A stretch of DNA of 64,000 bases, taken from positions 1,054,931-1,118,930 of the forward strand of contig OY970311.1 in NCBI GenBank assembly GCA_963716415.1, written 5' to 3'. A program made the position numbers and the translations under genes. Source of the DNA: Vulcanimicrobiota bacterium. GTDB taxonomy: Bacteria > Vulcanimicrobiota > Vulcanimicrobiia > Vulcanimicrobiales > Vulcanimicrobiaceae. A model generated the notes under the pieces. It did not search any database and had not been told where the DNA came from. It saw nothing but the letters and a program-made list of their open reading frames with translations. Positions 49,228-64,000 of the stretch are shown here, piece by piece; positions within the stretch are counted from its first letter, which is position 1, and every line of letters starts with the position of its first letter.

Positions 49228-49407
49228 ATGAGTACCGAACGCGAAAACCCGCTTACGCCCAAAGAAGCGGAGTCAATGGGCCGTCAGACCGAGACGCACA
49301 CCCGCGGCGAAAAGATCAGCGATCAAGTCGTCTACGGCGACATCGAGTCGGTTGAAAATGAAGACCAGATGGACGAGCATCACGCCGACGCCGACGACAT
49401 CGTGTAG
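49228..49407 (+). CDS. small acidic hypothetical protein (59 aa, below the ORF-track cutoff)
   Basis: My manual translation: MSTERENPLTPKEAESMGRQTETHTRGEKISDQVVYGDIESVENEDQMDEHHADADDIV. The ATG lies 4 nt after the preceding stop. Confidence 0.3.
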   Translation: MSTERENPLTPKEAESMGRQTETHTRGEKISDQVVYGDIESVENEDQMDEHHADADDIV

Positions 49408-49422
49408 AAGCGGAAAAGAGAA

Positions 49423-49444
49423 GGGCGGGCAAGAGAGCCCGCCC
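49423..49444. terminator. GC-rich hairpin between convergent genes (GGGCGGGC-AAGAGA-GCCCGCCC)
   Basis: Perfect 8-bp stem. There is no clear U-tract, so its function as a terminator is inferred from position. Confidence 0.45.
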
Positions 49445-49453
49445 GTCCGTTAG

Positions 49454-50767
49454 TTACGAAACCACGCGCTTCTGTCTCCGTTCATGTTCGAATAGATGAA
49501 TGAGCGCTTTGTCGTAAAGAGCGCTCCAGACGCCCTTGCGTTTAAGCGCCACAACTGGGCTGCGCTGCGCCGAGATCGCGTCGGTTAAGGCATCGACTAG
49601 GGTCGGCCCGATTTCGTCGAGTAATTTGTACGGATCCTGCGTCCAGCTCGCATCTTCCTCGTCGCTAACGATCGTGCGCAATGCTGCAAGGATTGGCATC
49701 GCCAAACCGTCTGATGAGAGCCGATAGTCCACTTCCCTGTCAAGCGCGGGCTTCACGAGTGGCAGGAAATGGAAACTCGTGCTTCTCGTATTGTCGCATT
49801 CGTTGGTGCGCCGGAAGCGAGGACGCGAGGTACCGGTCTTACCGTCTGTAGCGCTATACCACTTGTCGAAATTCAGCACTATGTACTCTTTGAGCGCAAG
49901 AGCGTCGCAAACTAGGCCCCTGAGGCGCTTGTAGTTTTCGCGTTTTGCCACAAATTGCTTAACCGTCTTCTTTCGACTCCAGTAAGCTACATACGGCTGT
50001 TCCTCGCTGGCGAATTCTCGATTATCGAGGAGCGTCAGCAACTGGAGCACATAGACGATGTCGACCTGCTTCTCGTCCTCGCGGATTTCGTTCTGCTTAA
50101 AGGCTACGAGGTCGCGCATCCCCGGGACCTTGTCGAGCTGCTCCTTGACGAACTCGAACGATTTGGCAAGCTCTTCCAAAGCATATGCTTCGACGTTTAC
50201 CGAGAAGTTGCGAGCCTCGGAGATTTTCGGAATCTCCTCGACTGTGGCCCCGCGAAGAAGCTGAATTGTCACGAACTGGGTTCGCGGCTCCGCGCCGCGC
50301 TGCTTGTCGAACCACTCCTTGGAACCGACGGTCTCGTCAATGATGCGACAGGTGTGAGCCCCGTCGAGGTTCCCATGCAGGAACGGGTCGTCTTCCGTCC
50401 ACGTTAACGTCTCCGTCTTGTTGTCGTAGGAGAAGTTGTTCGCGGTGAACAGCATACCGCGATTTAGTCGATGGAACATTCCATCGCGCCGCAACAACGA
50501 TTCACGAATCGCCTTGGCTACAGGCGTCGAAAGGTTCTGCGTGCGTGGGTTTGGCTCGAGCGAGATTTTAGTGTTGGACGTTCGTGAGACGTTCTCGGCG
50601 CGGAAGGCTTCGGGGCTGTCCGATTCCAGCACGAGGTTGCGGAATTTCTCAACGTCGACGCGCGCCTCCATTACCGCATAGGTTTCAGCCGGGTCTCCAA
50701 AGAGGTCCCGGTCGGAGGTCACTTTCACGGCGTGCGACGGCACGCCAAGGATTGTGTATTTAATCAT
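49454..50767 (-). CDS. AIPR-like abortive-infection family protein (tentative)
   Basis: No enzymatic motif I can name with certainty. 'FLHGNLDGAHTCRII' resembles the NG-QT core of AIPR proteins. The context is an R-M neighbourhood. Confidence 0.4.
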   Translation of the reverse strand: MIKYTILGVPSHAVKVTSDRDLFGDPAETYAVMEARVDVEKFRNLVLESDSPEAFRAENVSRTSNTKISLEPNPRTQNLSTPVAKAIRESLLRRDGMFHRLNRGMLFTANNFSYDNKTETLTWTEDDPFLHGNLDGAHTCRIIDETVGSKEWFDKQRGAEPRTQFVTIQLLRGATVEEIPKISEARNFSVNVEAYALEELAKSFEFVKEQLDKVPGMRDLVAFKQNEIREDEKQVDIVYVLQLLTLLDNREFASEEQPYVAYWSRKKTVKQFVAKRENYKRLRGLVCDALALKEYIVLNFDKWYSATDGKTGTSRPRFRRTNECDNTRSTSFHFLPLVKPALDREVDYRLSSDGLAMPILAALRTIVSDEEDASWTQDPYKLLDEIGPTLVDALTDAISAQRSPVVALKRKGVWSALYDKALIHLFEHERRQKRVVS

Positions 50768-50960
50768 TTCTCTTCCCTTTATGCCGGCCAGGTGTCCCTA
50801 AGCCGGTGGTGGATATCGACCCGACCTTCCGGTGCGAGCCGTCCCGCCAAATGGCGGGCGTGATGGTTACGACGTGGCGGGCGATCCCCTGCCTCGTCCC
50901 TCTTACTATACCCCAACGCGCAGAAAGGTTTCAAGCGCCGCGGGATTACATCGACAGGGG

Positions 50961-52439
50961 ATGGGCGCCACACGCATCAGCGCGGCTATGCTCTACGACT
51001 ACGTCTCGTGCGAGCATCGGCCGTGGATGGACCTCTACGCCGACTACGGCGACCGCGATGATGTCAGCCCGTTTCTCGAGCTGCTATGGCGAAGGCAGCG
51101 AGCACACGAAGAGGATGCGATCGCGGGCGAAGAGGTCATCCGCCTCGACGAACTCGAGAACAACGACGCTCGTGCTACTAAAACGCTCGAAGCTATGCGC
51201 GCCAACGTTGCGCTGATCTTCCACGGGCGTATCGAATCTGACGACCTCGCCGGCGAACCCGATCTACTGAGACTGGAGAACGGCAAATACCTACCGGGCG
51301 ACATCAAAGCCGGGGCTGGCGAAGAAGGCGACGGTGAAGACCGCCGGCCGAAGAAGCGCTACGCTGTGCAATTGGCACTCTATGTCGACGTTCTCGAACG
51401 GCTTGGTTTTTCGGATGGCAAGCGCCGCGCGTTCGTCTGGGACGTCAACGACGAAGATGTTCCGTACGACCTAATGGCAGCGAAAGGGCCACGCACACCC
51501 GGCTCTCTTTGGGACGACTACGAAGAAGCACTACGCGCGGTACGCGAGATCGTCGCTGGCACGCGCAATCCTGGACCTGCGTATCACGGCGAATGTAAGC
51601 ACTGTATGTGGTACGACGCATGCATGCGGCGACTAGAAGAACTGGACGACTTGACGCTGCTCCCGGGACTCGGCAGGTCGCGCCGCGATGGACTCATCGA
51701 GCACGCGAACACAATCGCCGCCCTGGCGACGCTCGTTCCAGACTCGCTCTTGGATGAAAAGGGGAGGAGTCGTGTAAAGGGGACCGGTCCCGATATGATT
51801 CTCCGATTTCGCGAACGTGCGGTGTTGAGGCATACTCACGGCACCCCGTATCTCCGGGAGGAGCTTAATCTACCTGAAGCGGAGACGGAACTCTTTTTCG
51901 ACATCGAGACGGACCCAGGACGCAATCTCTGCTATCTGCACGGATTCAGCGAACGCCGAGACGGCGAAGAGAAGTACGTCGGCTTCTTCACGACTGCGCC
52001 CACTCCTGATGCGGAACGCGAATCGTTCGCAGAAGCGGTCGCCTACGTCCGCTCGAAGATGCCATCGGTAATGTATATCTACTCGAAGTACGAGCGCACG
52101 TGGTGGCGCGCTCTTCAGGAGCGCTATCCAGAAGTTTGTACTCGAGCAGAGATCGATGAAATGTTCGACGAGTCTCGAACCGTCGATTTGCTGGCGGTCG
52201 TTCAATCATCGACGGAATGGCCTACGAAAGATCACACGATCAAGGCGCTTGCGCGCTATCTCGGCTTCGAGTGGCGCGACACGCATCCGTCTGGCTTCGC
52301 CTCGATCGAGTGGTACGACCGCTATGTTGCCGGTGACGTTGAGGCGAAGGCCCGCATCCTGGAGTACAACGAGGACGACTGCGTAGCCACGCGCGTGCTG
52401 CTCGACGGAATCCGCGGCCTCAAGATACGCGAGCCGTGA
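50961..52439 (+). CDS. TM0106-family RecB-like nuclease: Cas4-type PD-(D/E)xK + 4-Cys cluster, HhH, RNase H-like exonuclease
   Basis: 'YDYVSCEHRPW', 'GEPDLLRL..GDIKAG', 'QLALY', 'ECKHCMWYDAC', 'LTLLPGLGRSRRDGL', 'LFFDIETDP...YLHGF', 'YNEDDCVATRVLLD'. ATG at 50961 with AGGGG upstream. Confidence 0.65.
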   Translation: MGATRISAAMLYDYVSCEHRPWMDLYADYGDRDDVSPFLELLWRRQRAHEEDAIAGEEVIRLDELENNDARATKTLEAMRANVALIFHGRIESDDLAGEPDLLRLENGKYLPGDIKAGAGEEGDGEDRRPKKRYAVQLALYVDVLERLGFSDGKRRAFVWDVNDEDVPYDLMAAKGPRTPGSLWDDYEEALRAVREIVAGTRNPGPAYHGECKHCMWYDACMRRLEELDDLTLLPGLGRSRRDGLIEHANTIAALATLVPDSLLDEKGRSRVKGTGPDMILRFRERAVLRHTHGTPYLREELNLPEAETELFFDIETDPGRNLCYLHGFSERRDGEEKYVGFFTTAPTPDAERESFAEAVAYVRSKMPSVMYIYSKYERTWWRALQERYPEVCTRAEIDEMFDESRTVDLLAVVQSSTEWPTKDHTIKALARYLGFEWRDTHPSGFASIEWYDRYVAGDVEAKARILEYNEDDCVATRVLLDGIRGLKIREP

Positions 52440-52453
52440 GCCTCGAACCAATA

Positions 52454-52481
52454 CCGATGGGCAGTTCTCACCCTCCATCGG
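52454..52481. promoter_or_regulatory. inverted repeat CCGATGG-N14-CCATCGG between the nuclease gene and the HTH gene
   Basis: Perfect 7-bp arms. It could be a terminator hairpin or a C-box-like operator. Confidence 0.3.
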
Positions 52482-52535
52482 GGTCTGCCAGGTCGGGCGC
52501 ACAAAGGCCAACGAAGATGCCGCCCGGAGGGACCG

Positions 52536-52760
52536 GTGACTGACGTGGCGGATCGAGGTCCGATGAGCAATTTCGACCCTGCCCGCCTCGCGGAAATACG
52601 CAAGTCCAAGGGGATGACCCAGCGTGAGCTTGCCCGGACCGCAGGCGTCTCGCAGGCACTCGTGGCGGAACTCGAGCGTGGCAAGCATCCGCCGTCCTCG
52701 AACTCGTTGGCAAAACTCGCCTCAGCGCTAGCGGTCAGAGAGGCTGACTTCGCAAAGTAG
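52536..52760 (+). CDS. XRE family HTH protein (controller C-protein candidate)
   Basis: 'LAEIRKSKGMTQRELARTAGVSQALVAELERGKHPPSSNSLAKLASAL'. Its stop abuts the next ATG (TAGATG). Confidence 0.7.
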   Translation: MTDVADRGPMSNFDPARLAEIRKSKGMTQRELARTAGVSQALVAELERGKHPPSSNSLAKLASALAVREADFAK

Positions 52761-53798
52761 ATGCCAAAGACCGAAAAGACGCAGGTTTTCGATCATCTCT
52801 TCCGGTGGCGATACGACCCCGAAGGTAACAAATCGCTTCGATGGGACGAAGCGACGCAAACCATCCCCGAAGACCGTCGTCTCGTGTATGCGCATGAAGT
52901 GCTCTTTGCCATAAGAGATACTGGCGCAAAACTAGGCAACAACCAGGCGGCAAATTTTACGAAGGATTTTCTTCGGAAAGAATCGCGGAACGCGAACTGG
53001 CCAGAAAGACTAGCGCAGCTGCGATGGACAATCGAGCAGGTTACGGGCAAAGACGACGCAACACAGCTGCCGCGCAACTTCATCTTCAAACGGTACGAGG
53101 AACGGGACGACGTCCCATTTCCGGACAGATGGCCCACACCCGACGATGCACAGCAGCATGAGATACAATCCGTCACTCTCTCCGTTGCATCGAAGCAGAT
53201 CGAGCGCATGGACGAAGCCCGCATGATGCAGATCGCCGTGGATCTGCGCGTCGTGGAGACGCACTTTGCTCTTTATTCGCCGCTCTCGACGGAAGAATAC
53301 AAAATCGTGCATATGGACCACCTTCAGATGGGCCTGAAGCTGCGCGGCTCCGAAATCGACGGATTGTATCTAGCAGAATTCCAAGATGAGAGCGGCGTTC
53401 GGCATCCTGTCCTGATCACCGTTGAAGCTAAGAAGCACGACGAATTCGTAAATGGTTCGCAAGTGGTCGCACAGGTCGAGGACGCCTCTGCGCTAGGAGT
53501 TGGTGCTGAACAAATCATTCCGATAGCCATAAAACATCGCGATGGAGGCATGTATATTTTCGAGTTTGCCCCGTACGATGTTCCGAATGGCAAGCGCTTC
53601 GACAAGGATTCTCTAGACGCGACCTCGCTCAAACTGACAGCGGCAGTCTTTTACGAAATCAAGCCACAGATCGTTGGATTTTCGGTGAAGGCGCGTCGAC
53701 CGAAGACCGCTACACGCAAGAATGGCCGTCTCGTTTTGATCGAGGCGGAGCCGGATCCCGACCTTCTGAAAGACGACGAAGACGACGATGGCGACTAA
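52761..53798 (+). CDS. candidate type II restriction endonuclease (PD-(D/E)xK-like motif), acidic C-terminal tail
   Basis: 'EIDGLYLAEFQDESGVRHPVLITVEAKKHDE' fits D-x22-E-x-K. It follows an HTH gene and converges on the methyltransferase operon. I recognise no family. Confidence 0.4.
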   Translation: MPKTEKTQVFDHLFRWRYDPEGNKSLRWDEATQTIPEDRRLVYAHEVLFAIRDTGAKLGNNQAANFTKDFLRKESRNANWPERLAQLRWTIEQVTGKDDATQLPRNFIFKRYEERDDVPFPDRWPTPDDAQQHEIQSVTLSVASKQIERMDEARMMQIAVDLRVVETHFALYSPLSTEEYKIVHMDHLQMGLKLRGSEIDGLYLAEFQDESGVRHPVLITVEAKKHDEFVNGSQVVAQVEDASALGVGAEQIIPIAIKHRDGGMYIFEFAPYDVPNGKRFDKDSLDATSLKLTAAVFYEIKPQIVGFSVKARRPKTATRKNGRLVLIEAEPDPDLLKDDEDDDGD

Positions 53799-54514
53799 CG
53801 GCGTTTCGTGAGCGCCACGCCAAAGCGGGGACAAAAATCCTCGAATGGACACTCAGCGCAGAGTGGCCTCGCAACGCAGATGGCGGCCCCGATGTCGAGC
53901 AATCCAAAGTTGGTCTCTCGCGCGTCGTCACTCGCGCCTGCTATCGCGTCGGCAATGCGCTGAAAGATAACCGCTCGCGGATCCTTAGTGCGAATTCGGA
54001 AGACACGCCGAATGATCCGCGCTACGTTGGCATCGACAATCCCGACTTTCTCACCACGACCGAAGCTTGCTATCGCCCGCGCGGCATATGCTCCGAGTCC
54101 TGGGACATCCCGAAACAAGATCCGCCAATCCTCGAAAATCGCGCTCCTAGAATTCGCCGCTATCTTCGACATCGCGATCAGTTGGCTCGTGCGCTTCTTG
54201 GACAATCCGAGGGGTCCAAGCACCTCTTCGATATCGCGCACATTTGCAGCCGCCATCGCGTCTGCGCAGGGGTAATCGAGTATAAGCGCGCTGTAAGTCG
54301 GGGCGGCAGTAGTCGCACGTGTCTTCTGGAGAAGAATCTCCGCGACGGCGAGACGGAAGGGATCGCGCTCCGTGCGCCACGGGAATTTGCGCCCCGCGCG
54401 CCTGAAATACGCTGCGGATTGCGATGCTACTTCGCGCGCCAGCTCCTTTCTCGGCCGACTAAGCCCTCTGGCGTGGCGTCGCGCGACTGCTATTTTCGCG
54501 GCGAGTACTCCTAT
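53795..54514 (-). CDS. HhH-GPD superfamily DNA glycosylase with 4Fe-4S loop (Mig/MutY/Nth-like); no canonical start codon for the full domain
   Basis: 'FPWRTERDPFRLAVAEILLQKTRA', 'VPGLGAYAARAI', 'VDANVARIIRRVF', 'CVARPLCAECPFEDFC'. The frame is open from 54514, but the first ATG/GTG/TTG is at 54256. Confidence 0.7.
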   Translation of the reverse strand: MGVLAAKIAVARRHARGLSRPRKELAREVASQSAAYFRRAGRKFPWRTERDPFRLAVAEILLQKTRATTAAPTYSALILDYPCADAMAAANVRDIEEVLGPLGLSKKRTSQLIAMSKIAANSRSAIFEDWRILFRDVPGLGAYAARAIASFGRGEKVGIVDANVARIIRRVFRIRTKDPRAVIFQRIADAIAGASDDARETNFGLLDIGAAICVARPLCAECPFEDFCPRFGVALTKRR

Positions 54515-55440
54515 TTAACGAGACGTCTTCTCGATTTTGGAATTCTTGCGACATCTGCACCGAAATGTCGCGCTGCACCGAGCCGGTCGAAAGCCAAGAG
54601 AGCCGGGTCTCCAAGACGGATTGCCTTCGTTGGCTTCGCTGGCTCAAGGTCGAGCGCACGAACGATGCATTGTGCAATTGCGCGTCCAAACAAGGGCGGC
54701 ACAGCATTGCCGATACTTCGAAACCCGTTCCATTTCGTTCGATGAAGGCGAAACCAATCGGGGAAGGAGTGCAGGCGCGCGGCTTCGCGCACTGAGATCA
54801 CGCGCGGCAGCGTCGGGTGCAGTGGTCGAGGTGAAGTGTAGGCGCCTCGTTCGCTACCAGTGCCTGCGCGCAATGTGTTGCAGAGGCCTCCGCGGTCTAG
54901 CCGGTAGAATCGAGAGATCTTCTCTGTTTCGCCTTCCTTCGTACGTCTGAACCGACCAATCGACTCGCGGGTGTGCTCCGTTCGCATCGAAGAAGTCAAA
55001 ACGGATGGATCCCATTTTCTGGGATGGGACAGGTCCTCCGGATCTTCGAGTTCACTCCGCAACCGACGTGCATAGTCCGACATAGCTCCGTGCATTCTTC
55101 TGTGCTCGGTCTTGGTGAGTCTCACTTCGTCAGTCGTGCTTAGCACCTCGAACTCATCTAGATCCGGAATGTCGCCGATCGCGTCCCACACAGTGGGACC
55201 CGCTGGCAGCTCTTCCAGAGGTAGGGTTAGAGCGAGTTGCTTTTTGCCTGAGCGTTTGGCTGCGCGCCTCACCACCGGAGTTGGATAGTGCGCGATATTT
55301 TCGCCGTTAAGAGCCCCGATAAGTATTAACCGTCGGCGATCCTGAGGTACGCCGAAATCCGCGGCGCTCAAAATTGCCTGCTTACGAACGTCAGCCATCT
55401 GAACCGCAATCGTATAGCCGTGCTTGCGGAACCGGTCCAT
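54511..55440 (-). CDS. DNA (cytosine-5)-methyltransferase, C-terminal part (motif VIII, TRD, motifs IX-X)
   Basis: 'AADFGVPQDRRRLILIG', 'VREAARLHSFPDWF', 'RSIGNAVPPLFGRAIA'. Its ATG overlaps the preceding stop as TGATG. Confidence 0.85.
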   Translation of the reverse strand: MDRFRKHGYTIAVQMADVRKQAILSAADFGVPQDRRRLILIGALNGENIAHYPTPVVRRAAKRSGKKQLALTLPLEELPAGPTVWDAIGDIPDLDEFEVLSTTDEVRLTKTEHRRMHGAMSDYARRLRSELEDPEDLSHPRKWDPSVLTSSMRTEHTRESIGRFRRTKEGETEKISRFYRLDRGGLCNTLRAGTGSERGAYTSPRPLHPTLPRVISVREAARLHSFPDWFRLHRTKWNGFRSIGNAVPPLFGRAIAQCIVRALDLEPAKPTKAIRLGDPALLAFDRLGAARHFGADVARIPKSRRRLVK

Positions 55441-56066
55441 CAGCGCGCTAGGATGCCGGCGTGGCCGCCTGTCACCATACCCGGAACGTTCTCCATGACG
55501 AAATAGCGCGGCTTGATGGCTCCAATCAAGTCGGCGAACTTGTAGACTAGCTTGTTGCGATCATCCGAGACATCGCGCTTCCCCATTGTACTAAACCCCT
55601 GGCAAGGCGGACCGCCGAAGATGCAGTCAATTACTCCCGTCCAATCGGAATCAGCGTGGCCGTGTGCCGCGAAGCCCTTCTTAGCAGCTTCCAGCAAAAT
55701 GGGCGCCTCTATGCGCGCCACATCGTCGCACACGACTTTCGTTAGGGGAAAATTGAATTCATGAACGGCGGCGTGAACCGGATCGTACTCGACCGAAGCA
55801 ACAATGTCGAAGCCAGCCTGCTCAAAGCCGAGCGACAGGCCACCGACCCCGGCGAACAGATCGATCGCGATCGGGCGTCTAACCTGTCGCTTTTCAATCG
55901 ACGCGCTCGCGGAGATACGCCGCCCTGTAACGTGTGCCTTCGGGGTACACCCCTTCCGTGTTGGCACCGGTCTCGCCACTACCTGCTGTATCCACTGATT
56001 TTCCACTCCCAATATATAGTTGTCCCCACGTTCTTCACGCGCGAACGTATGTTCGTATGATACCAC
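55440..56066 (-). CDS. DNA (cytosine-5)-methyltransferase, N-terminal part (motifs I-VI)
   Basis: 'IDLFAGVGGLSLGF', 'GGPPCQGFSTMGKR', 'YFVMENVPGM'. GTG start at 56066. Confidence 0.85.
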   Translation of the reverse strand: MVSYEHTFAREERGDNYILGVENQWIQQVVARPVPTRKGCTPKAHVTGRRISASASIEKRQVRRPIAIDLFAGVGGLSLGFEQAGFDIVASVEYDPVHAAVHEFNFPLTKVVCDDVARIEAPILLEAAKKGFAAHGHADSDWTGVIDCIFGGPPCQGFSTMGKRDVSDDRNKLVYKFADLIGAIKPRYFVMENVPGMVTGGHAGILAR

Positions 56067-56106
56067 TTGTCAAGGATATGTTGTTGCCGATTTGTTTCCG
56101 GCGCGG

Positions 56107-56612
56107 CTAGAGAACGGCTTTTAGCCTCTCGATCTTCAAAGCGAGGAGCGCCATAGCGATAGTGCCCACCTCTGCGTACAGATACGCGGCGACAATACGA
56201 AGGTCCGATAGGTCGGGCGCGTACCGATAGTGCCTTATGAATGCGGAGATCCGTCCTTGGCGCGCGCTGAACTCCGCGCCGGCGCGATCCGCAAGATAGT
56301 CTCGCCAGTCCCGACCTTGCTTCTTCGTATTACAATCTCGGCACGCCGGCACAATGTTGCCCCACGCGTGCAACCCGAGACTTGCGCGATTAGTTGGTAC
56401 CAGGTGGTCCTGCGCCTCATTGCCCGGGCGCAGTTCTTCGTTGCAGTAGCAGCAGCAGTCGCCGAAATACTTTTTATCTCAGCGAAGTTTTTCCGCGATC
56501 CGTAGGGCTCTAGGCCTCGCTTCCGGTCGTAAACCTCGCCCATCTCCTGGAGGAAGATTCGCAGTGCAGTGTTCGCGATACCGGCCCTACCGCGAGGCAC
56601 CTGGCAGCACAA
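56107..56612 (-). pseudogene. HNH endonuclease, reading frame broken at an A5 run (coding strand; T5 at 56471-56475)
   Basis: 'DCCCYCNEEL...DHLVPTNR...HAWGNIVPACRDCNTKKQG' is an HNH/Zn-finger core. The N-terminal '...RKNFAEIK' is in another frame, and one extra A would join the two. Confidence 0.65.
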
Positions 56613-57552: not shown

Positions 57553-60500
57553 CTAGAATTCGCCGGGCGGCTTGCCAACCTTCTGTGAGACGTTGAAGTT
57601 GATCGTGCCGCTGTGCAGGTGGCTGCTGAACAGATAGCTGCCGCCCAGGCGGAAATCGAGGCCGTGTTTGCCGCTCACCTCGAGCGTCGGTGCAATATTC
57701 CAGAGCGTGCGATCGATCGACGAGTTGAACTCGGTCATCCCCAGCGCCGCGGGCTCCCCTTGCAGCATCGCCGAGACCGAGGTTTGGTTATTCCCGAGGA
57801 ACTGCGTGGCAAAGAGATCGACGTGGAGCCGCAGGTGCTGCTCCCCGATCGAGCCCATAGCGCCGCTGAACTGCAGGCCCGGCTGCAGCGTCACGAACGA
57901 GTCCGCCGTGCCCTGCGTCGTAATGCTCAAGCCACCCGCGCCGCTCTCGCTCATCGGGCTCATGTACATGCGGGTGTCGTTGAGCGCGAGGTACGGCGTG
58001 AGCGTCCATCCGCCGCGCAGCTGCAACCGTTTTTCTGAACGCAGGCCGCCGCTGAGGAACGATACATGCTGGGTAGAGAATGCCTGCGTGTCAGGCGTTG
58101 CGATCGTCCCGTAGCCGGTCGCGCCGTCGGCATCCGAAATCGACTGGCTCGGAAACGTAATCCAGCGATTGGATTGATAGCTTGAAACGCCGCCGGTGAG
58201 CTGGGCCGAATAAACAAATCCGGTACCGGCTTCGCGCTTGAGGAACGCGCCCGCCATGTAGCGCCAGCCCGTCATCGTGGTCGAGTTCACGTACAAGTTG
58301 TCGTTGGTGAAATTCAAACCCGCGCCGAAGAGCGTGCGCTTATCCGAGCTTATCGCGCTTTCGGTGCCGAGGTTCACGCCCGTCGCGCTCTCGTTGTAGC
58401 CGAGGATCGCGCCGCTCTCCATTTGCGATGTCGACGTATTGCCGATCGTCCCCCAGACGCACCGGTTGCCGGCGGTTGACGCGAACGTCGCCTCGGTCGC
58501 GCGGCATGCAGTCATCTGCTGCGAGAAACTCAGCGCGTTGGTCAGCGTCGCCGCTTCCACCGCGCCAAAACTTTCGGGCGTGACCTCGTCGTAGATACGC
58601 TCGAGTTGCGACGTGTTGGCGCTGCTAATTGCTTGCGCAATCATGCCTTGCAGCGACGGCGACGATCCGGCCGTTTGCACCGCGTTGAGATAGCTCCCGA
58701 CCTCTAGGCCCTCGGGCGTGAGCCCCGCTGGATCGAAGTCGACGTGCGATTGCAACATCACCGTGCCGTTCGGTCCGGGATCCAGGGTATAGTGCACGAT
58801 CGCCGATGGCGCCGTGCTCAACGTCATGGAATCCGACAGCGTGCCGTCGGCATCAATCAACGTGAAGGTGTGCGTGCCGGGTTGCGCGCTGCCAAGGCCC
58901 ACCGAAGCGATCGCCAACGTCCCTTGCAGCGCTGCATTGCCGGTGACGAGCAGTTCCGGCGGATCCGGCGCACCAATATTGACCGCCTCGAGCAGCGTGC
59001 CGCTCGACCCTTGGGTAAGATTGCCGTTGATCGTCGTCTCGCCGCCGTTATTTAAGAACCCGATCGCGAGCGTGCCGTTGTTCGTCAGCGTGTTGTTGGT
59101 GCCGCCGAGATTCACGACCGGACCCGCTTCGAATGTTCCGTTGTTGGTAAACGTATTCGTGCCGCCGGGCGCGAGCCAAACCGAGCCGGCCATCGAGCCG
59201 TTGTTCGTGATCGTCGTCGACGCGGTGTTCGACACGACAGCGTATCCATTCGTGTCCTCAACCAGACCGTTGTTGGTCAACGTCGCATTCATCCCAGCAA
59301 CAAAGTTGATCGCTGCAGCAGACGGCGCCGTGCTCGGATTCGTACTGGGGCCCGCCGCGCCCGAGATCACCGAACCCGTCGGCCGCACGACCATGTTGAG
59401 CGCACCGCCGCCGCTCCGGCCGGTGCTCGATTCCACGATCGCACTTGCGTTGAGCGCGTCGACGAGTCCGCCGACGTTCACCGTCACGCGACCACCCACC
59501 GATCCGCTGCCGGATGCGCTTTGCGCATAGATGCCGACCGCATTTGCACCGGTGGTAATGTCTTGTGCGCCCTGCCCGAACATCACCGACACGAGGCTGG
59601 CCGATCCCGTGCCGCCGCCGCTTCCCGCAAAGAACGTCCCCGCCGCACCGGCGTATCCGCCGCCGCCGCCAACCGATTGCGCGAAGATGCCGTCGGATGC
59701 AACGCCCGTTGTCTCGATCGAGCCGTTATTCACAATCGTGACGGCGCTGCCGCTTCCGGAACCGCTCTTCAACGTGGCCGTCGTCGGTGCGGCGATTGCG
59801 CCGCCGCCGCCGCCGATCGATTGGGCAAAGATCCCGAACGACGAATCGCCCGTTGTTTCGATCGTTGCGCCCGCGTTGTTGGTCACGTTCACGGTGTTGG
59901 CGCCGCCGCTCGCATTATTGCTCGCGCCGAGCATCGACCTCACCGTCTGCGTGTCGGTGAAATATCCGCCGCCGCCGCCAATCGATTGTGCAACGATGCC
60001 GTTGGCAAGTTGCCCTTCCGTAGCGATGCCGCCGCTGTTCGTCACGTTCACGGTGTTGCCGTTGCCGCCCGATCCGCCGCTTGCGCCAAGGAAGATCCCG
60101 ACGGGAACGTAGCCGGCGACGCCGCTGTAATTTGCGCCGGCGTTACCGCCGCCGCCGCCGATCGACTGCGCGATGATGCCGTTCGCGAGCGCGCCATTCG
60201 TTTCGATTATTGCCGCGGAGGTCGTCACCGTCACAGCACCGCTTGAACCGCCGGCGCCGCCCGACGCACCGAATGCTAAACCCAGACCGCCGAAACCGGC
60301 CGCGCCCGCAACCGTAAAGCCACCATTGCCGCCGCCGCCGCCGATCGATTCCGCAACGATCGCATTGGATTCAATCCCGTCGGTGAACATGCTTCCGGTT
60401 TGCGTAACGCCCACCGTCCCGCCGCTTCCACCTAAACCGCCGCTCATACCATACGCGCCGGTTCCGCTCACCGCCGGACTCAACGTTCCGGAAACGGCGT

Positions 60501-63500
60501 ATCCGGCGTTGCCGCCGCCGCCGCCGATCGATTGCGCGAGAATGCCGTCCGCAACATTGCCTTGCGTTTGAATCTGTCCGTTGTCGGTAAGGCTGATCTG
60601 CCCGCCGCTACCGCCGCTACCGCCCGATGCACCGAGCGCGACATTGATACCTAAACTCGATGTGGCTTGTCCGCGCACCGCGTCGCCGCCGCTCCCGCCG
60701 CCATTGCCGATTGATTCCGCCATGATCCCGATGGAAAGATCGCCTTGCGTCACGATTGCGCCGTTGGTATTCGTCGATTGCACGCTCACATTGTTGCCGC
60801 TGCCGCCGCTGCCGCCGTAACCGCCCATGGCTACGCCGCCGGTAATCGACTGGGTGACGCTGCCGCTCACCGCTAAACCGCCGTTGCCGCCGCCGCCGCC
60901 CACCGACTGCGCAAGAATGCCGTCGGATTCAACGCCGGTCGTTTCCAACATCGCGGCCGTGTTGGTCACGCTCACGGCACCGCCGCTGCCGCCGGCACCG
61001 CCGGACGAACCGAACTGCATACCCGGAAACGCGACGGGATCTTGGCTAATGCTGATGCTGCCGCCAACCGCCATGCCGCCCTCACCGCCGCCGCCGCCAA
61101 CCGATTGCGCTTCGATCGCCGCGGACTGCGCGCCGCTCGTCATGATGCTGCCCGTGTTGGTCACCGAAACCATGGCGCCGTTCCCGCCGCCGGCGGTGCT
61201 GCCCATGTCGAGATCGAGACCCTTGATCGCATTCGCAATGGGCTGGCCAAACGTCGTCGTCTCACTCGCACCGCCAAAGCCGCCGCCGCCGCCGACGGAT
61301 TGCGCGAGAATGCCGTCGGATTGATCGCCTTGCGTTTCGATCGTGCCGTTGTTCGTGAGGTTCACCGTACCGCCGTTGCTCGCGTCGCCACCGCTGCCGT
61401 ACTTGAATCCGCCCCCACCACCGCTCGGCGTCACTTTCGCGTTGACTTTGAATCCAGCGGATCCGCCGCCGCCGCCGATCGATTGCGCCTCGATGCCGGC
61501 CGATTCGCCGCCGCTCGTGCTGATGGCGGAATAATTCGTCACCGTGACGGTGTTCGCGTCGGCGCCGCCACCGCCGGCGCTGCCGAGCGCAAGCCCCGCG
61601 TTCGGCGAACCGCTGAAAAGACTATTCGTCGTACCGGCCGCCGCGGCAACGCTGAAGCCGCCGTTCCCGCCGCCGCCGCCGATCGATTGTGCAAGGATGC
61701 CTTGCGATGAATCGCCCAAGGTTTCGATCATCGTGCTGCCGCCGCTCGTGCCGCTGTTGACGGTGACGGTGTTGCCGGTATTTCCAGCGCCGCCGTTCCC
61801 GCCGAAGGCGACTGCGATCGTGTTGCCGGTCGTGTTGAGTGATGCATTGACGGCGAATCCACCGTTGCCGCCGCCGCCACCGATCGATTGTGCGTCGATG
61901 GCCGCAGAGTCGGTGCCGTTGGTTCGGATGGAATCGAAGTTGCTGACGCTAACCGTGTTGCCCGAACCGCCGCTCCCCGCGTTGCCGCCGAAGGCGAGCG
62001 TGGCACTCCACGTCGGATCATTTGCCGGCGGCGACGTTCCGGCTTGCGCTTGGAACGTTACCGCGAAACCGCCGTTGCCGCCGCCGCCGCCGATCGACTG
62101 CGCAAGAATGCCGTTGGCATTGTCACTGTTGGTGATCAGTCCAACGCTCGTCGTTGCTGTTGCACTGCCCGCGGTCACGCCCACCGTGCCCGCACCGCTT
62201 CCGGTACCGCCGCTGCCGCCGAACGCTGCCGTCACCGACGCATTATTCTGCACTTGACCGGGCGGCGCAACCGCGGCCGACGCGTTGACGACGAAACCGC
62301 CGTTGCCGCCGCCGCCGCCGATCGATTGCGCTTCGATCGCGCTCGCGTTTTCACCAAAGGTCTGAATGTTTGCGGTATCGGAGAGCGTGACGTTGCCGGC
62401 GCTTCCGCCGCTTCCGCCCTTGCCGCCCAATGCGACCGAGTTAGTCGTGCCGCGCGCATACGTCGCGGTGACCGACCAGCCGCCGTTTCCACCACCGCCG
62501 CCGATCGATTGCGCGAGCACGCCGTCGGCATCCACACCTTTGGTGATGATGTTCGCGCCGTTCGTCACCATCACGACATCACTGTTGCCACCGCCACCGC
62601 CTTGACCGCCAACCGTCACGTTCGTGCCGCTCGAGTATCCCGTGCTTGGCGTCGTCGCGACTTGCCCCGATACGACGAAGCCGCCATTGCCGCCACCACC
62701 GCCAATCGATTGTGCGAGAATACCGTACGACTCAAAACCCGACGTCAGAATTTGCTGACCGGTGCTGGTGACCGATACGCCGTAGCCGTTCCCACCGGCA
62801 CCGCCCTGGCCACCAACCGCGACGGCAATGCTCGTGTTGGGGCCGCCGGCCGCGAGCGAACCGCTCACCGAGAAGCCGCCGTTGCCGCCGCCGCCGCCGA
62901 TCGATTGCGCAGCAATACCGGTGGATTCATCACCGTACGTGACGACGGTGCTCTGCGAGGAAACGGTCACGGTATTTGCGCCGGCTCCGCTGCCACCGTC
63001 GCCGCCGACGGCAACATTGACCGCCACCTTACTCGACGAGCTCAGCGAACCAGCAACGGCGAAGCCGCCATTGCCGCCGCCACCACCAATCGATTGCGCG
63101 AGAATTGCGTCGGACTCTTCGCCGCCGGTTTGCAGGGTCGTCGCGCCGGTCGTCACCGACACGCTTGCGCCGTTGCCGCCATTGCCGCCGTCGCCGCCGA
63201 CCCCGACGCTAACCGTGCCGCCGCTCGTAATGCCGCCAGCAACACTGAATCCGCCGTTACCGCCGCCACCGCCGATCGACTCCGCGAGAATGTCGTTTGC
63301 ATTTGCGCCTTGCGTCGTAATGCTGCCGCTGTTTTCGGCGACGACGACGTTGTTCGCCTCGGCGCCCGTTCCGCCGGATCCGCCGAGCGAAAATGCAAGT
63401 CCGGGTGCACCGCTTGAGATCGCGCCGCCAACGCTGAAACCGCCGTTGCCGCCGCCGCCGCCGATCGATTCGGCAGCAATGCCGCTCGATTCGTTGCCGC

Positions 63501-64000
63501 CGGTGGTGATAATACCGCTCTGCGTAACGTAGACGGCACTTGCAACGCCGCCATTACCACCGCTACCGCCGACGCTTACCGAACCGACCGGACCGCTGCT
63601 GAGCGTGCCCGCAACGCTAAAGCCACCGTTGCCGCCGCCGCCGCCAATGGATTGGGCGAGAATTGCATCCGAGAGATCGCCCATCGTGCTCAGTTTGCCG
63701 GTGCTCGTGAGCGTGACGAGGTCGCCCGTTCCACCCGAGCCCGCGCCGCCGCCGATGCCCACTGCGGCAGCAAACGACACGCCGATCGTACCGGCAACAC
63801 TAAAGCCACCGTTGCCGCCGCCGCCGCCCACCGATTGCGCGATTAACGCATCGGCATTGACACCCGTTGTCGTAACGTTGCCGCTATTGATCAGCCATGC
63901 CGCTCCAGCGTTTTGACCAGCGCCGCCACCGCCGCCGAGTGCAAGACCGCCCGAGATCGAACCAAGCGATCCCGCCACAGCATCTCCGCCGTTGCCACCG
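57553..64000 (-). CDS. giant type Va autotransporter (C-terminal beta-barrel plus Gly-rich repeat passenger); N-terminus outside the window
   Basis: The C-terminal 280 or so aa have alternating beta-strand character and end in 'GEF'. The passenger carries at least 23 copies of 'A(Q/E)S(I/V)GGGGGNGGF'. Confidence 0.85.
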   Translation of the reverse strand, partial: GGNGGDAVAGSLGSISGGLALGGGGGAGQNAGAAWLINSGNVTTTGVNADALIAQSVGGGGGNGGFSVAGTIGVSFAAAVGIGGGAGSGGTGDLVTLTSTGKLSTMGDLSDAILAQSIGGGGGNGGFSVAGTLSSGPVGSVSVGGSGGNGGVASAVYVTQSGIITTGGNESSGIAAESIGGGGGNGGFSVGGAISSGAPGLAFSLGGSGGTGAEANNVVVAENSGSITTQGANANDILAESIGGGGGNGGFSVAGGITSGGTVSVGVGGDGGNGGNGASVSVTTGATTLQTGGEESDAILAQSIGGGGGNGGFAVAGSLSSSSKVAVNVAVGGDGGSGAGANTVTVSSQSTVVTYGDESTGIAAQSIGGGGGNGGFSVSGSLAAGGPNTSIAVAVGGQGGAGGNGYGVSVTSTGQQILTSGFESYGILAQSIGGGGGNGGFVVSGQVATTPSTGYSSGTNVTVGGQGGGGGNSDVVMVTNGANIITKGVDADGVLAQSIGGGGGNGGWSVTATYARGTTNSVALGGKGGSGGSAGNVTLSDTANIQTFGENASAIEAQSIGGGGGNGGFVVNASAAVAPPGQVQNNASVTAAFGGSGGTGSGAGTVGVTAGSATATTSVGLITNSDNANGILAQSIGGGGGNGGFAVTFQAQAGTSPPANDPTWSATLAFGGNAGSGGSGNTVSVSNFDSIRTNGTDSAAIDAQSIGGGGGNGGFAVNASLNTTGNTIAVAFGGNGGAGNTGNTVTVNSGTSGGSTMIETLGDSSQGILAQSIGGGGGNGGFSVAAAAGTTNSLFSGSPNAGLALGSAGGGGADANTVTVTNYSAISTSGGESAGIEAQSIGGGGGSAGFKVNAKVTPSGGGGGFKYGSGGDASNGGTVNLTNNGTIETQGDQSDGILAQSVGGGGGFGGASETTTFGQPIANAIKGLDLDMGSTAGGGNGAMVSVTNTGSIMTSGAQSAAIEAQSVGGGGGEGGMAVGGSISISQDPVAFPGMQFGSSGGAGGSGGAVSVTNTAAMLETTGVESDGILAQSVGGGGGNGGLAVSGSVTQSITGGVAMGGYGGSGGSGNNVSVQSTNTNGAIVTQGDLSIGIMAESIGNGGGSGGDAVRGQATSSLGINVALGASGGSGGSGGQISLTDNGQIQTQGNVADGILAQSIGGGGGNAGYAVSGTLSPAVSGTGAYGMSGGLGGSGGTVGVTQTGSMFTDGIESNAIVAESIGGGGGNGGFTVAGAAGFGGLGLAFGASGGAGGSSGAVTVTTSAAIIETNGALANGIIAQSIGGGGGNAGANYSGVAGYVPVGIFLGASGGSGGNGNTVNVTNSGGIATEGQLANGIVAQSIGGGGGYFTDTQTVRSMLGASNNASGGANTVNVTNNAGATIETTGDSSFGIFAQSIGGGGGAIAAPTTATLKSGSGSGSAVTIVNNGSIETTGVASDGIFAQSVGGGGGYAGAAGTFFAGSGGGTGSASLVSVMFGQGAQDITTGANAVGIYAQSASGSGSVGGRVTVNVGGLVDALNASAIVESSTGRSGGGALNMVVRPTGSVISGAAGPSTNPSTAPSAAAINFVAGMNATLTNNGLVEDTNGYAVVSNTASTTITNNGSMAGSVWLAPGGTNTFTNNGTFEAGPVVNLGGTNNTLTNNGTLAIGFLNNGGETTINGNLTQGSSGTLLEAVNIGAPDPPELLVTGNAALQGTLAIASVGLGSAQPGTHTFTLIDADGTLSDSMTLSTAPSAIVHYTLDPGPNGTVMLQSHVDFDPAGLTPEGLEVGSYLNAVQTAGSSPSLQGMIAQAISSANTSQLERIYDEVTPESFGAVEAATLTNALSFSQQMTACRATEATFASTAGNRCVWGTIGNTSTSQMESGAILGYNESATGVNLGTESAISSDKRTLFGAGLNFTNDNLYVNSTTMTGWRYMAGAFLKREAGTGFVYSAQLTGGVSSYQSNRWITFPSQSISDADGATGYGTIATPDTQAFSTQHVSFLSGGLRSEKRLQLRGGWTLTPYLALNDTRMYMSPMSESGAGGLSITTQGTADSFVTLQPGLQFSGAMGSIGEQHLRLHVDLFATQFLGNNQTSVSAMLQGEPAALGMTEFNSSIDRTLWNIAPTLEVSGKHGLDFRLGGSYLFSSHLHSGTINFNVSQKVGKPPGEF
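59640..64000 (-). repeat. tandem coding repeats, about 160-190 nt period, sharing the core GCGCAATCGATCGGCGGCGGCGGCGG on the coding strand
   Basis: On the + strand the core 'ccgccgccgccgccgatcgattgcgc' recurs at about 59.81, 59.97, 60.15, 60.34, 60.52 kb and onwards to the window end. Confidence 0.8.

Follow-up and report, generated by a model that had tools for sequence, protein, structure and literature searches.

The Mig-like glycosylase gene that directly follows an m5C methyltransferase gene on the minus strand of the window (by which we mean the whole 64,000-nucleotide stretch of contig OY970311.1 analysed here) is, with high confidence, a separate gene whose start codon has been altered by a point mutation, and not the downstream half of a fused protein or the product of a sequencing error. 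The sequence at the junction of the two genes is real: its run of three A residues (A3) is genuine, and no sequencing error hides a fused protein there. The preliminary description had offered two alternatives for the start-less frame, of which translation from a non-canonical start or by coupling is still live, while a fusion masked by a homopolymer error is refuted by the assemblies and relatives compared below. Our fullest account, a separate Mig.MthI-type gene that lost its ATG and would still be translated at a low level from AUA, is in our estimate an even call, the use of AUA and the coupling to the methylase both being presumed.

The genes probably belong to a module of the restriction-modification type in an Eremiobacterota (Vulcanimicrobiota) genome. 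On the minus strand, the m5C methyltransferase occupies two ORFs: an N-terminal one at 55440..56066 (FAGVGG, PPCQ and ENV motifs; PF00145 profile positions 4-117; ending with TGA at 55442..55440), for which the upstream limit of 56066 is that of the longest ORF and the real start is uncertain, and a C-terminal one of 309 aa at 54511..55440 (QDRRR, TRD and GNAVPP motifs; PF00145 profile positions 129-323). The junction itself (54494..54517, minus strand, read directly) comprises, in order, the TAA that opens the glycosylase frame (54517..54515), the A3 run (54516..54514), the methylase stop TAG (54513..54511), and a Shine-Dalgarno-like AGGAG that overlaps this stop (54512..54508) and is followed by a 14-nt spacer. 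Next comes an ATA at the ancestral start position (54491..54493), from which the glycosylase coding region (53795..54493, minus strand) extends for 232 codons plus a TAG stop, with the codon homologous to the relatives' start taken as the first. Converging on it from the plus strand is an ORF of 345 aa (52761..53798; 4-nt overlap with the 3' end of the glycosylase gene), and directly upstream of that ORF, also on the plus strand, lies a 74-aa, controller-protein-like HTH_3 protein (52536..52760; PF01381, E 8e-15) that is conserved in the related loci L001, L003, L004 and L039. The 345-aa ORF is syntenic with the methylase and glycosylase in L003, L004, L006, L013-15, L039 and L040, and searches of Pfam, NCBIfam, PDB and plasmids gave no informative match for it; we regard it as the putative restriction endonuclease of the module. 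Of the features of a type II restriction-modification system, the window thus holds a PF00145 methylase (split) and an HTH_3 protein, together with a 345-aa ORF that has no known family or structure. A promoter and terminator scan found no promoter-like or terminator-like site between methylase and glycosylase, which supports a single operon from which we infer that both are co-transcribed.

Direct reading confirmed what the preliminary description had reported of the frame. It is free of stops from 54514 to the TAG at 53797..53795 (240 codons), and no ATG, GTG or TTG occurs in frame ahead of the ATG at 54256..54254, a stretch of 86 codons lacking a canonical start; between 54530 and 54380, ATG, GTG and TTG are absent from all frames. 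The methylase ORF ends in GTT AAA TAG and the glycosylase frame lies one base off, so that one extra A would join the two. The Mig-like HhH-GPD character of the glycosylase and its position immediately behind an m5C methyltransferase were likewise borne out, by matches to PF00145 for the methylase and to PF00730 for the glycosylase (E 4.9e-14, the domain including RKFPWRTERDPFRLAVAEILLQKTRA), along with the structure match given below. In L003, the closest relative, no canonical start is found between codon 1 and codon 79 either, so one base substitution at the start is enough to yield the whole observation. Gene callers run on three near-identical public assemblies, L001 (ERR10755945), L002 (ERR11523669) and L041 (ERZ25039518), called only truncated glycosylase products of 148 or 153 aa; a look-up of the 153-aa product returned L041 only.

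What the start codon used to be is apparent from the relatives. The codon homologous to 54493..54491 of the window is ATG in L003 and L004, GTG in L039 and TTG in L040, these being the four closest relatives, and an AGGA(G/A) motif stands 13-14 nt upstream of the start in all four. The ATA of the window, which L001, L002 and L041 share, is a single G>A change away from the ATG of the closest relative. Nine distinct loci have the methylase directly before the glycosylase; the glycosylase starts with ATG in three of them and with GTG or TTG in the other six, and in eight of the nine this start is -1 to +17 nt away from the methylase stop. Such frequent weak starts, placed so near the methylase stop, fit both translational coupling and a tolerance of weak initiation. 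We also considered whether the G>A change was itself a 5-methylcytosine deamination event, and dropped the idea, as the methylase has no known recognition site and the local sequence is not palindromic.

That the junction is read correctly follows from comparison of assemblies. The A3 run, the TAG and the ATA, and with them the rest of the junction, are identical in L001, L002 and L041, and the A3 and TAG recur in L003, which is 83% identical. Across four assemblies, the TAG at 54513..54511 and the frame offset keep the two domains out of one uninterrupted ORF. Relatives conserve both the C-terminus of the methylase (..KSRKRLVK) and its stop, the stop staying within one codon down to about 70% identity, and all 78 glycosylase homologues are stand-alone proteins of 148-261 aa that contain PF00730 only, with no PF00145. 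Taken with the start codons that the closest relatives have at the position of the ATA, these findings amount to the outcome that, by the preliminary description, would refute a fusion. An exact-pattern scan of metagenome contigs for the junction, in either allele, gave no match; protein-guided scans of genome and metagenome contigs returned only relatives of at most 64% identity, which are useful for architecture and not for dating the ATA. It is the comparison with near-identical and with 80-88% identical relatives that settles the question of artefact or fusion.

Apart from its start, the glycosylase protein is intact. It is 87% identical to the 232-aa stand-alone protein P0001 and keeps all 49 invariant columns of our alignment A1, including the Asp of the VDAN motif and four Cys. 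Pairwise dN/dS values range from 0.10 to 0.19, and pairs that involve the window are no higher than the rest. Polarised branch counts of nonsynonymous to synonymous changes are 12:13 for the window and 16:36 for L003 (Fisher p 0.2, not significant).

In our preferred account, the AUA at 54493..54491 would act as an initiation site for translation at a low level, assisted both by the AGGAG overlapping the methylase TAG and by ribosomes that finish translation at this TAG, 18 nt upstream; the glycosylase would presumably remove the T left by deamination of 5-methylcytosine. Against this account, ATA is a very rare start codon, and genes commonly begin to decay by losing their start. Among genes with near-cognate AUN starts, E. 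coli infC begins at AUU. In E. coli, initiation at AUA has been put at about 0.1-3% of that at AUG (10.1101/063800). In Listeria rsbW, a naturally occurring replacement of ATG by ATA reduced translation and did not abolish it (PMC13068326); that variant is likewise a one-base change of the start to ATA. The 14-nt spacing between the Shine-Dalgarno-like motif and the ATA is long, which counts against translation from AUA. In a stronger form of this account, to which we give somewhat less than an even chance, ATA would be a working start, the start codon of the family would drift among ATG, GTG, TTG and ATA, and the dose of glycosylase would be held very low and tied to translation of the methylase through termination-reinitiation. 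If so, the start codons of these loci would make up a natural series of attenuation steps for a repair enzyme that is potentially mutagenic.

A recently silenced pseudogene is a serious competing explanation, to which we assign a substantial probability that nevertheless stays below even. Here the ATG>ATA change would have shut the glycosylase off, with the open frame still in place only because the event is too recent for more lesions to have built up. The 86 codons lacking a canonical start point this way, as do the truncated products called in the three near-identical assemblies, and a 153-aa product begun at ATG 54256 would lack the N-terminal helices bearing the residues aligned to Mig F27, E42, R47 and A50. 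The higher ratio of nonsynonymous to synonymous changes on the window branch leans in the same direction at the non-significant level given above, and disruption of the methylase in the window would fit decay of the whole module. Against this, in L001 and L041 the same allele has beside it a 494-aa methylase and a putative endonuclease that are both intact, no second lesion is present in a protein that retains every invariant residue, and dN/dS of the window pairs is as low as that of other pairs; in addition, GTG and TTG starts are already tolerated in relatives, and initiation at AUA is measurable in E. coli and Listeria. The four assemblies that carry the ATA are identical across the gene, so they give no sign of selection acting since the change.

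Initiation might instead occur at a near-cognate CTG (54442..54440), giving a protein 17 residues shorter; this codon aligns by eye with the TTG that is the first listed start of the L007 homologue (LTARMVAERA vs LAREVASQSA) and has an AAGGAG just upstream. That AAGGAG abuts the CTG with zero spacing, however, and is not conserved in L003, and all four closest relatives begin at the codon equivalent to 54493, which makes a CTG start very improbable. More improbable again is a methylase-glycosylase fusion made as a minor product through programmed -1 ribosomal frameshifting, or through slippage at the stop, at GUU-AAA-UAG. Ribosomes might pause at an AAA (Lys) codon with a stop behind it, no stop interrupts the glycosylase frame from the overlapping codon onward, and fusions of this kind are viable proteins elsewhere; yet G UUA AAU AGG is not an X XXY YYZ heptamer, tRNA-Lys would have to re-pair with UAA after a -1 slip, no structure is found downstream (z +1.2; 181 of 200 shuffled sequences folded equally well or better), and relatives differ in how the frames of the two genes relate, the relation being the same in 4 of 12 loci, in line with chance. 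We attach next to no weight to a methyltransferase-glycosylase fusion hidden by a homopolymer error with a true run of A4, even though a single added A would link the frames, three 1-nt indels in the nearby 750 bp separate the window from L001 and L041 and make indel errors in the window assembly possible, and proteins of the same architecture occur in another clade, since besides the A3, the TAG, the conserved methylase end and the absence of fused homologues (0 of 78), relatives start their glycosylase seven codons downstream with a start codon of its own and the seven codons before the ATA are intergenic in them.

Returning to the separate gene with a mutated start, we infer that its product is a Mig.MthI-type T(U):G mismatch glycosylase. 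Its best match among solved structures is 1KEA, Mig.MthI (E 4.9e-25), with MutY catalytic domains nearly equal (2.8e-23). Alignment to Mig.MthI, proposed earlier as a way to score the catalytic Asp and the specificity residues, found the Asp kept and the pocket residues of Mig type: GIVDANVARI aligns with AMVDANFVRV of Mig (D144), in a column that is invariant in A1. The four-cysteine iron-sulfur loop (C213, C219, C222 and C228; C-X5-C-X2-C-X5-C) is invariant as well. The positions described as separating Mig from MutY are A50 (Val45 in MutY), L187 (Gln182 in MutY), Y126, F27 and R47 (PMC2714593). By the 1KEA alignment only, the window has Ala (in QKTRA) at A50, Phe (TNFGLLD) at L187, Tyr (GLGAY) at Y126, Phe (KFPWR) at F27 and Lys (LLQKT) at R47. 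The protein is a single domain of 232 codons and does not have the C-terminal domain of MutY (NUDIX-like, for 8-oxoG recognition). An identity as MutY was rejected on this ground, on the Ala and Phe at Val45 and Gln182, and on a score of 113.8 bits against a cut-off of 286.5 for the NCBIfam mutY model (TIGR01084); the JGI label of "A/G-specific adenine glycosylase" for homologues is thus probably a misnomer.

The parallel with Mig.MthI extends from the small HhH-GPD iron-sulfur fold that lacks the MutY C-terminal domain to the residue type in the pocket (at F27, E42, A50, Y126 and D144, with a hydrophobic residue at L187). The two differ in that the window protein is bacterial (with Eremiobacterota relatives) and mesophile-like, shares low identity with Mig.MthI (by eye roughly a third or less), has a first Cys loop one residue shorter, carries Phe for Leu at 187 and Lys for Arg at 47, and has ATA as its start codon. 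In gene context, Mig.MthI reportedly adjoins an m5C restriction-modification system on the Methanothermobacter plasmid pFV1 (so Horst and Fritz in 1996 are said to have found). It has been described as countering deamination of 5-methylcytosine (PMC2714593).

Pairs of an m5C methylase and a Mig-like glycosylase are widespread, both within Eremiobacterota and outside it. Of the 40 fetched loci with a glycosylase match, 28 have a homologous PF00145 methylase in the fetched flank, mostly directly upstream and on the same strand, down to about 30% identity. A search of protein databases for C5-methyltransferases with an HhH-GPD domain, suggested in the preliminary description, did turn up true fusions, in haloarchaea and a Bacillota genome, in a different clade; examples are P0092 of Haloprofundus halobius (613 aa), P0102 of Halobaculum sp. 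CBA1158 (677 aa) and P0117 of a Bacillota MAG (619 aa), at loci L022, L025 and L026. As in the window, the two activities are linked, and the glycosylase half of the fusions is of Mig type (FPWR, LLRRTSA, VDANVARI, YNLALLD). In contrast to the window, the fusions are single ORFs of about 570-680 aa with some 25 residues between methylase motif X and FPWR, whereas the clade of the window always keeps a stop codon between the genes; identity to the window proteins is 25-27% for the methylase half and 33-35% for the glycosylase half. Our search of the literature for a described C5-methylase-HhH-GPD fusion found nothing relevant. In cultured haloarchaea that carry such methylase-Mig fusions, the coupling of methylation to deamination repair is directly testable.

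The E. coli dcm-vsr pair follows the same logic, in that an m5C methylase gene is followed at once by a T:G-repair gene in another frame. Vsr is, however, an endonuclease of another fold and not a glycosylase, and vsr overlaps dcm, whereas the window genes are 18 nt apart. Translation of vsr reportedly depends on that of dcm and is kept low (as attributed to Dar and Bhagwat, 1993).

The case is an ordinary one, of little consequence except for annotation. "Mig-like mismatch glycosylase" is the proper label for the gene, in place of MutY or of the 148- or 153-aa truncations from gene callers, and its start should be given as non-canonical or lost. More generally, when an ORF seems to lack a start and lies one base off the frame of its neighbor, neither a sequencing artefact nor a fusion has to be the cause.

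As a separate observation, which the preliminary description had not mentioned, the methylase in the window is broken into two ORFs (55440..56066 and 54511..55440) by a 1-nt deletion. A database look-up of the 309-aa C-terminal ORF returned no record, so the methylase frameshift has no independent confirmation. At the frameshift site (55438..55444, minus strand, by comparison with L001 and L041), the window reads GCGCGC-TGATGG where L001 and L041 have GCGCGCCTAATGG, creating a TGATG stop/start overlap, and the 309-aa ORF corresponds to residues 186-494 of the intact 494-aa methylase of those two assemblies.

The glycosylase gene lies on the minus strand, directly downstream of the m5C methylase gene, whose 3' end reads ...CGT CTC GTT AAA TAG (TAG at 54513..54511). 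The preliminary description had reported a stop-free glycosylase frame with no canonical start before 54256, and our ORF listing and start-codon scan agree: an overlapping TAA (54517..54515) precedes the opening of the frame, which begins ATA-GGA-GTA at 54514, remains open for 240 codons down to a TAG at 53797..53795, and contains an HhH-GPD domain (PF00730, E 4.9e-14). The first canonical start codon in this frame is an ATG at 54256, and from 54530 to 54380 no ATG, GTG or TTG occurs in any frame. We compared this region with loci from public assemblies (designated by L numbers). The first residue of the four closest glycosylase homologues (80-87% identity, 230-236 aa) aligns with the window Ile codon ATA at 54493..54491 (MVVTRRHARGLS.. 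versus IAVARRHARGLS..), and the homologous triplet in the DNA alignment is ATG in L003 and L004, GTG in L039, TTG in L040, and ATA in the window, L001, L002 and L041. The seven codons 5' of this ATA (IGVLAAK) are intergenic spacer; in L003 its nucleotide-level homologue separates the methylase TAG from the ATG. L003, too, lacks any further canonical start before codon 79, so the whole start-less observation comes down to a single G>A transition from the closest relative's ATG. On sequence grounds, the gene is a Mig-type, m5C-methylase-linked glycosylase gene with a point-mutated start codon.

The Mig-like assignment, already proposed in the preliminary description, is supported by both overall similarity and individual residues. 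Among solved structures, the top match by sequence is 1KEA (Mig.MthI, a T/U:G mismatch glycosylase; E 4.9e-25), closely followed by MutY catalytic domains at about 3e-23. In the 1KEA alignment, the window protein carries Phe at Mig F27, Glu (in AEILLQKT) at E42, Lys at R47, Ala at A50 (Val45 in MutY), Tyr at Y126, the catalytic Asp (in VDAN) at D144 and Phe at L187 (Gln182 in MutY), positions that distinguish the T:G enzyme Mig from MutY (PMC2714593); it departs from Mig.MthI itself in having Phe instead of Leu at L187 and Lys instead of Arg at R47. All 49 of the 49 invariant columns in a 14-sequence alignment are kept, the four cluster Cys included. Against the NCBI mutY equivalog the protein scores 113.8 bits (cut-off, 286.5), and the MutY C-terminal domain is absent from it. 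A Mig-like enzyme activity would be expected on these grounds. We note in passing that JGI labels most of the homologues 'A/G-specific adenine glycosylase', which, given the scores and pocket residues of the family, is probably a systematic mis-annotation.

As to how such a gene might be expressed, we give about an even chance to weak initiation at the AUA, coupled to translation of the methylase. No promoter-like or terminator-like site was found between the two genes, and the junction RNA is unstructured (fold z +1.2). In eight of the nine distinct relatives with the methylase directly upstream, the glycosylase start falls at -1 to +17 nt of the methylase stop: the junctions overlap or adjoin in L006 (TAGTG) and L013 (TAAGTG), and gaps of 6, 9 and 17 nt separate stop from start in L010, L004 and L003, respectively. 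Three of the nine start with ATG and six with GTG or TTG, and the five closest sequences share an AGGA(G/A) 13-14 nt upstream of the start, next to the methylase stop or overlapping it. Such a pattern is consistent with coupled translation and with initiation that is weak as a rule. AUA is a near-cognate codon that initiates at roughly 0.1-3% of the AUG level in E. coli (10.1101/063800), and a natural ATG>ATA change in Listeria rsbW leaves its product detectable (PMC13068326). Initiation at the downstream ATG (54256) should instead give an inactive product since, judging from the 1KEA alignment, it would lack the N-terminal helices that hold the equivalents of E42, R47 and A50.

That the glycosylase has recently been silenced, leaving a start-loss pseudogene, is a substantial possibility that falls somewhat short of an even one. 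Polarised counts of nonsynonymous and synonymous changes (12:13 on the window branch versus 16:36 on the L003 branch) hint at relaxation, but the difference is not significant (p 0.2). Against silencing, pairwise dN/dS is 0.10-0.19, with pairs involving the window no higher than others, and in L001 and L041 both genes beside the ATA allele, the 494-aa methylase and the putative endonuclease, are intact. The glycosylase gene does not differ at all among the four assemblies with ATA, so nothing in them dates the change or points to selection after it. Of the two readings first offered for the missing start, a non-canonical or coupled start stands alongside a start-loss pseudogene; the other, a methylase-glycosylase fusion masked by a homopolymer error, is refuted.

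By direct reading of the junction, one extra A in the A3 run (54516..54514) would indeed fuse the two frames. However, GTTAAATAGGAGTACTCGCCGCGAAAATAGCAG, with its A3 and TAG, is common to the window and three further assemblies: L001 (Logan, run ERR10755945; 99.8% identity across 4 kb), L002 (Logan, run ERR11523669; 100% identity across 53171..54731) and L041 (ENA assembly ERZ25039518, a contig of 47.5 kb). L003, the next relative at 83% nucleotide identity, likewise reads GTC AAA TAG, and the methylase of relatives down to approximately 70% identity keeps the same C-terminus (..KSRKRLVK/E), its stop shifting by at most one codon. By this agreement we take the A3 run to be true sequence, not a sequencing error, and, as the relatives also have start codons of their own, a fusion is excluded. 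All 78 glycosylase homologues recovered from a search of 5.8 billion proteins are stand-alone PF00730 proteins of 148-261 aa, and a methylase domain was found in 0/78. Programmed -1 frameshifting is rejected because there is neither a slippery heptamer nor a stimulatory structure and the frame relation between the two genes is not constant among relatives, being the same in 4 of 12 loci, as expected by chance. The in-frame near-cognate CTG at 54442, which by eye aligns with the TTG at which the L007 homologue starts, was also rejected: its upstream AAGGAG abuts it with zero spacing, and this motif is not kept in L003.

Natural fusions of this kind do exist in another lineage. Three distant loci encode, in one 618-619-aa ORF, a full C5-methylase, approximately 25 residues and a Mig-like HhH-GPD domain (L025:1175-3034; L026:830-2686; L022:3-1304). 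Both Pfam domains occur in 37 clusters (in the range P0079-P0128) among the best 120 matches to this fusion protein, at 570-677 aa; among the sources are the haloarchaea Haloprofundus halobius (P0092) and Halobaculum sp. CBA1158 (P0102), both cultured, and a Bacillota MAG (P0117). Database names, where given, are just 'DNA cytosine methyltransferase' or a close variant, and our literature search, of far from complete coverage, found no paper describing such fusions. The fusions are 25-27% (methylase half) and 33-35% (glycosylase half) identical to the window proteins. They make the fusion idea biologically realistic there but are uninformative on the window gene.

The relatives are Eremiobacterota (Vulcanimicrobiota) genomes. 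The window, L001, L003, L004 and L041 share the order ybaB, recR, m5C methylase, glycosylase, followed by a convergent 345-aa ORF without known family, a 74-aa HTH_3 protein upstream of it, and a TM0106-type RecB-like nuclease with an RNase_H_2 domain (50832-52439, plus strand, in the window). An AIPR-family protein (49454-50767, minus) follows in the window and L041; it is fragmented in L039, and L003 and L004, where the nuclease also adjoins the module, have other genes there. The locus resembles a type II restriction-modification module, controller protein included, set in a defence island, the 345-aa ORF being, from its synteny, a putative endonuclease. A homologous methylase (identity down to approximately 30%) is present in the fetched flank of 28 of the 40 fetched loci with a glycosylase match, mostly directly upstream on the same strand; a pairing this widespread marks a conserved module, matching the expectation for repair of 5mC deamination.

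In an Eremiobacterota sub-group (L005, L007, L008, L009 and L016), 0.3-0.9 kb separates the methylase stop from the first glycosylase start, and no 345-aa ORF homologue was found in the fetched flanks; in L007 this interval contains a 277-aa ORF without known family whose start overlaps the methylase stop (TAATG), and such an inserted ORF may be an alternative endonuclease. Two contigs of one 50%-identical relative (L017:2300-2560 and L018:140-400) have no canonical in-frame start past the methylase stop, the nearest being a TTG 74 nt upstream within the methylase gene, so that either the genes overlap as in dcm/vsr or this is a further start-less copy. L039 (ENA ERZ25039522 contig_79288) is a mosaic relative to window 52761-56066: its putative endonuclease is 99-100% identical, its methylase and glycosylase just 83%, and the final 16 glycosylase residues (CAECPFEDFCPRFGVALTKRR) the same, suggesting a recombination breakpoint close to the 3' end of the glycosylase gene. 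In L039 the endonuclease is broken up along with other genes, as would be expected from indel errors in a long-read assembly.

The window methylase itself is in two pieces, a split that the preliminary description missed. The N-terminal ORF ends ...GGHAGILAR-TGA (55442..55440, minus) and the C-terminal ORF starts at an overlapping ATG (55440..55438, minus), between motif VI (ENV) and motif VIII (QDRRR); both L001 and L041 encode an intact 494-aa methylase. These two loci agree with each other, and relative to them the window carries seven changes, all within 55441-56191: a deleted C with an A>G change at 55438-55444 on the minus strand (GCGCGCCTAATGG to GCGCGC-TGATGG, creating the TGATG overlap), a substitution and an inserted base close to the N-terminus of the methylase (55937-55941), one base lost from the upstream region (56065/56066) and two substitutions (56184 and 56191). 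The 6 kb beside this cluster, to its right on the minus strand (49402-55440), is identical to L041, the putative endonuclease is unchanged, and an exact look-up of the 309-aa C-terminal product returned no other record. The cluster could consist of real mutations that inactivate or split the gene, the allele then being divergent or in decay, or of assembly errors confined to this region. If the split is true, an intact putative endonuclease beside a broken methylase needs explaining: possibly the two halves are co-translated via TGATG and assemble, the endonuclease has no activity, or the genome is protected by a different methylase.

Between recR and the methylase, the window also has an 88-aa ORF (56107-56373, minus) that matches only the C-terminal HNH part (PF01844 profile positions 28-45) and resembles a gene remnant; in L004 recR and the methylase are approximately 100 nt apart, with no ORF between them. 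Farther along, a 2141-aa ORF (57553-63978, minus) consists mainly of repeats (..AQSIGGGGGNGGF(S/A)V..), and its C-terminal region resembles an autotransporter beta domain; that the ORF is intact over 6.4 kb of repetitive G-rich sequence speaks against a high overall rate of indel errors in the assembly.
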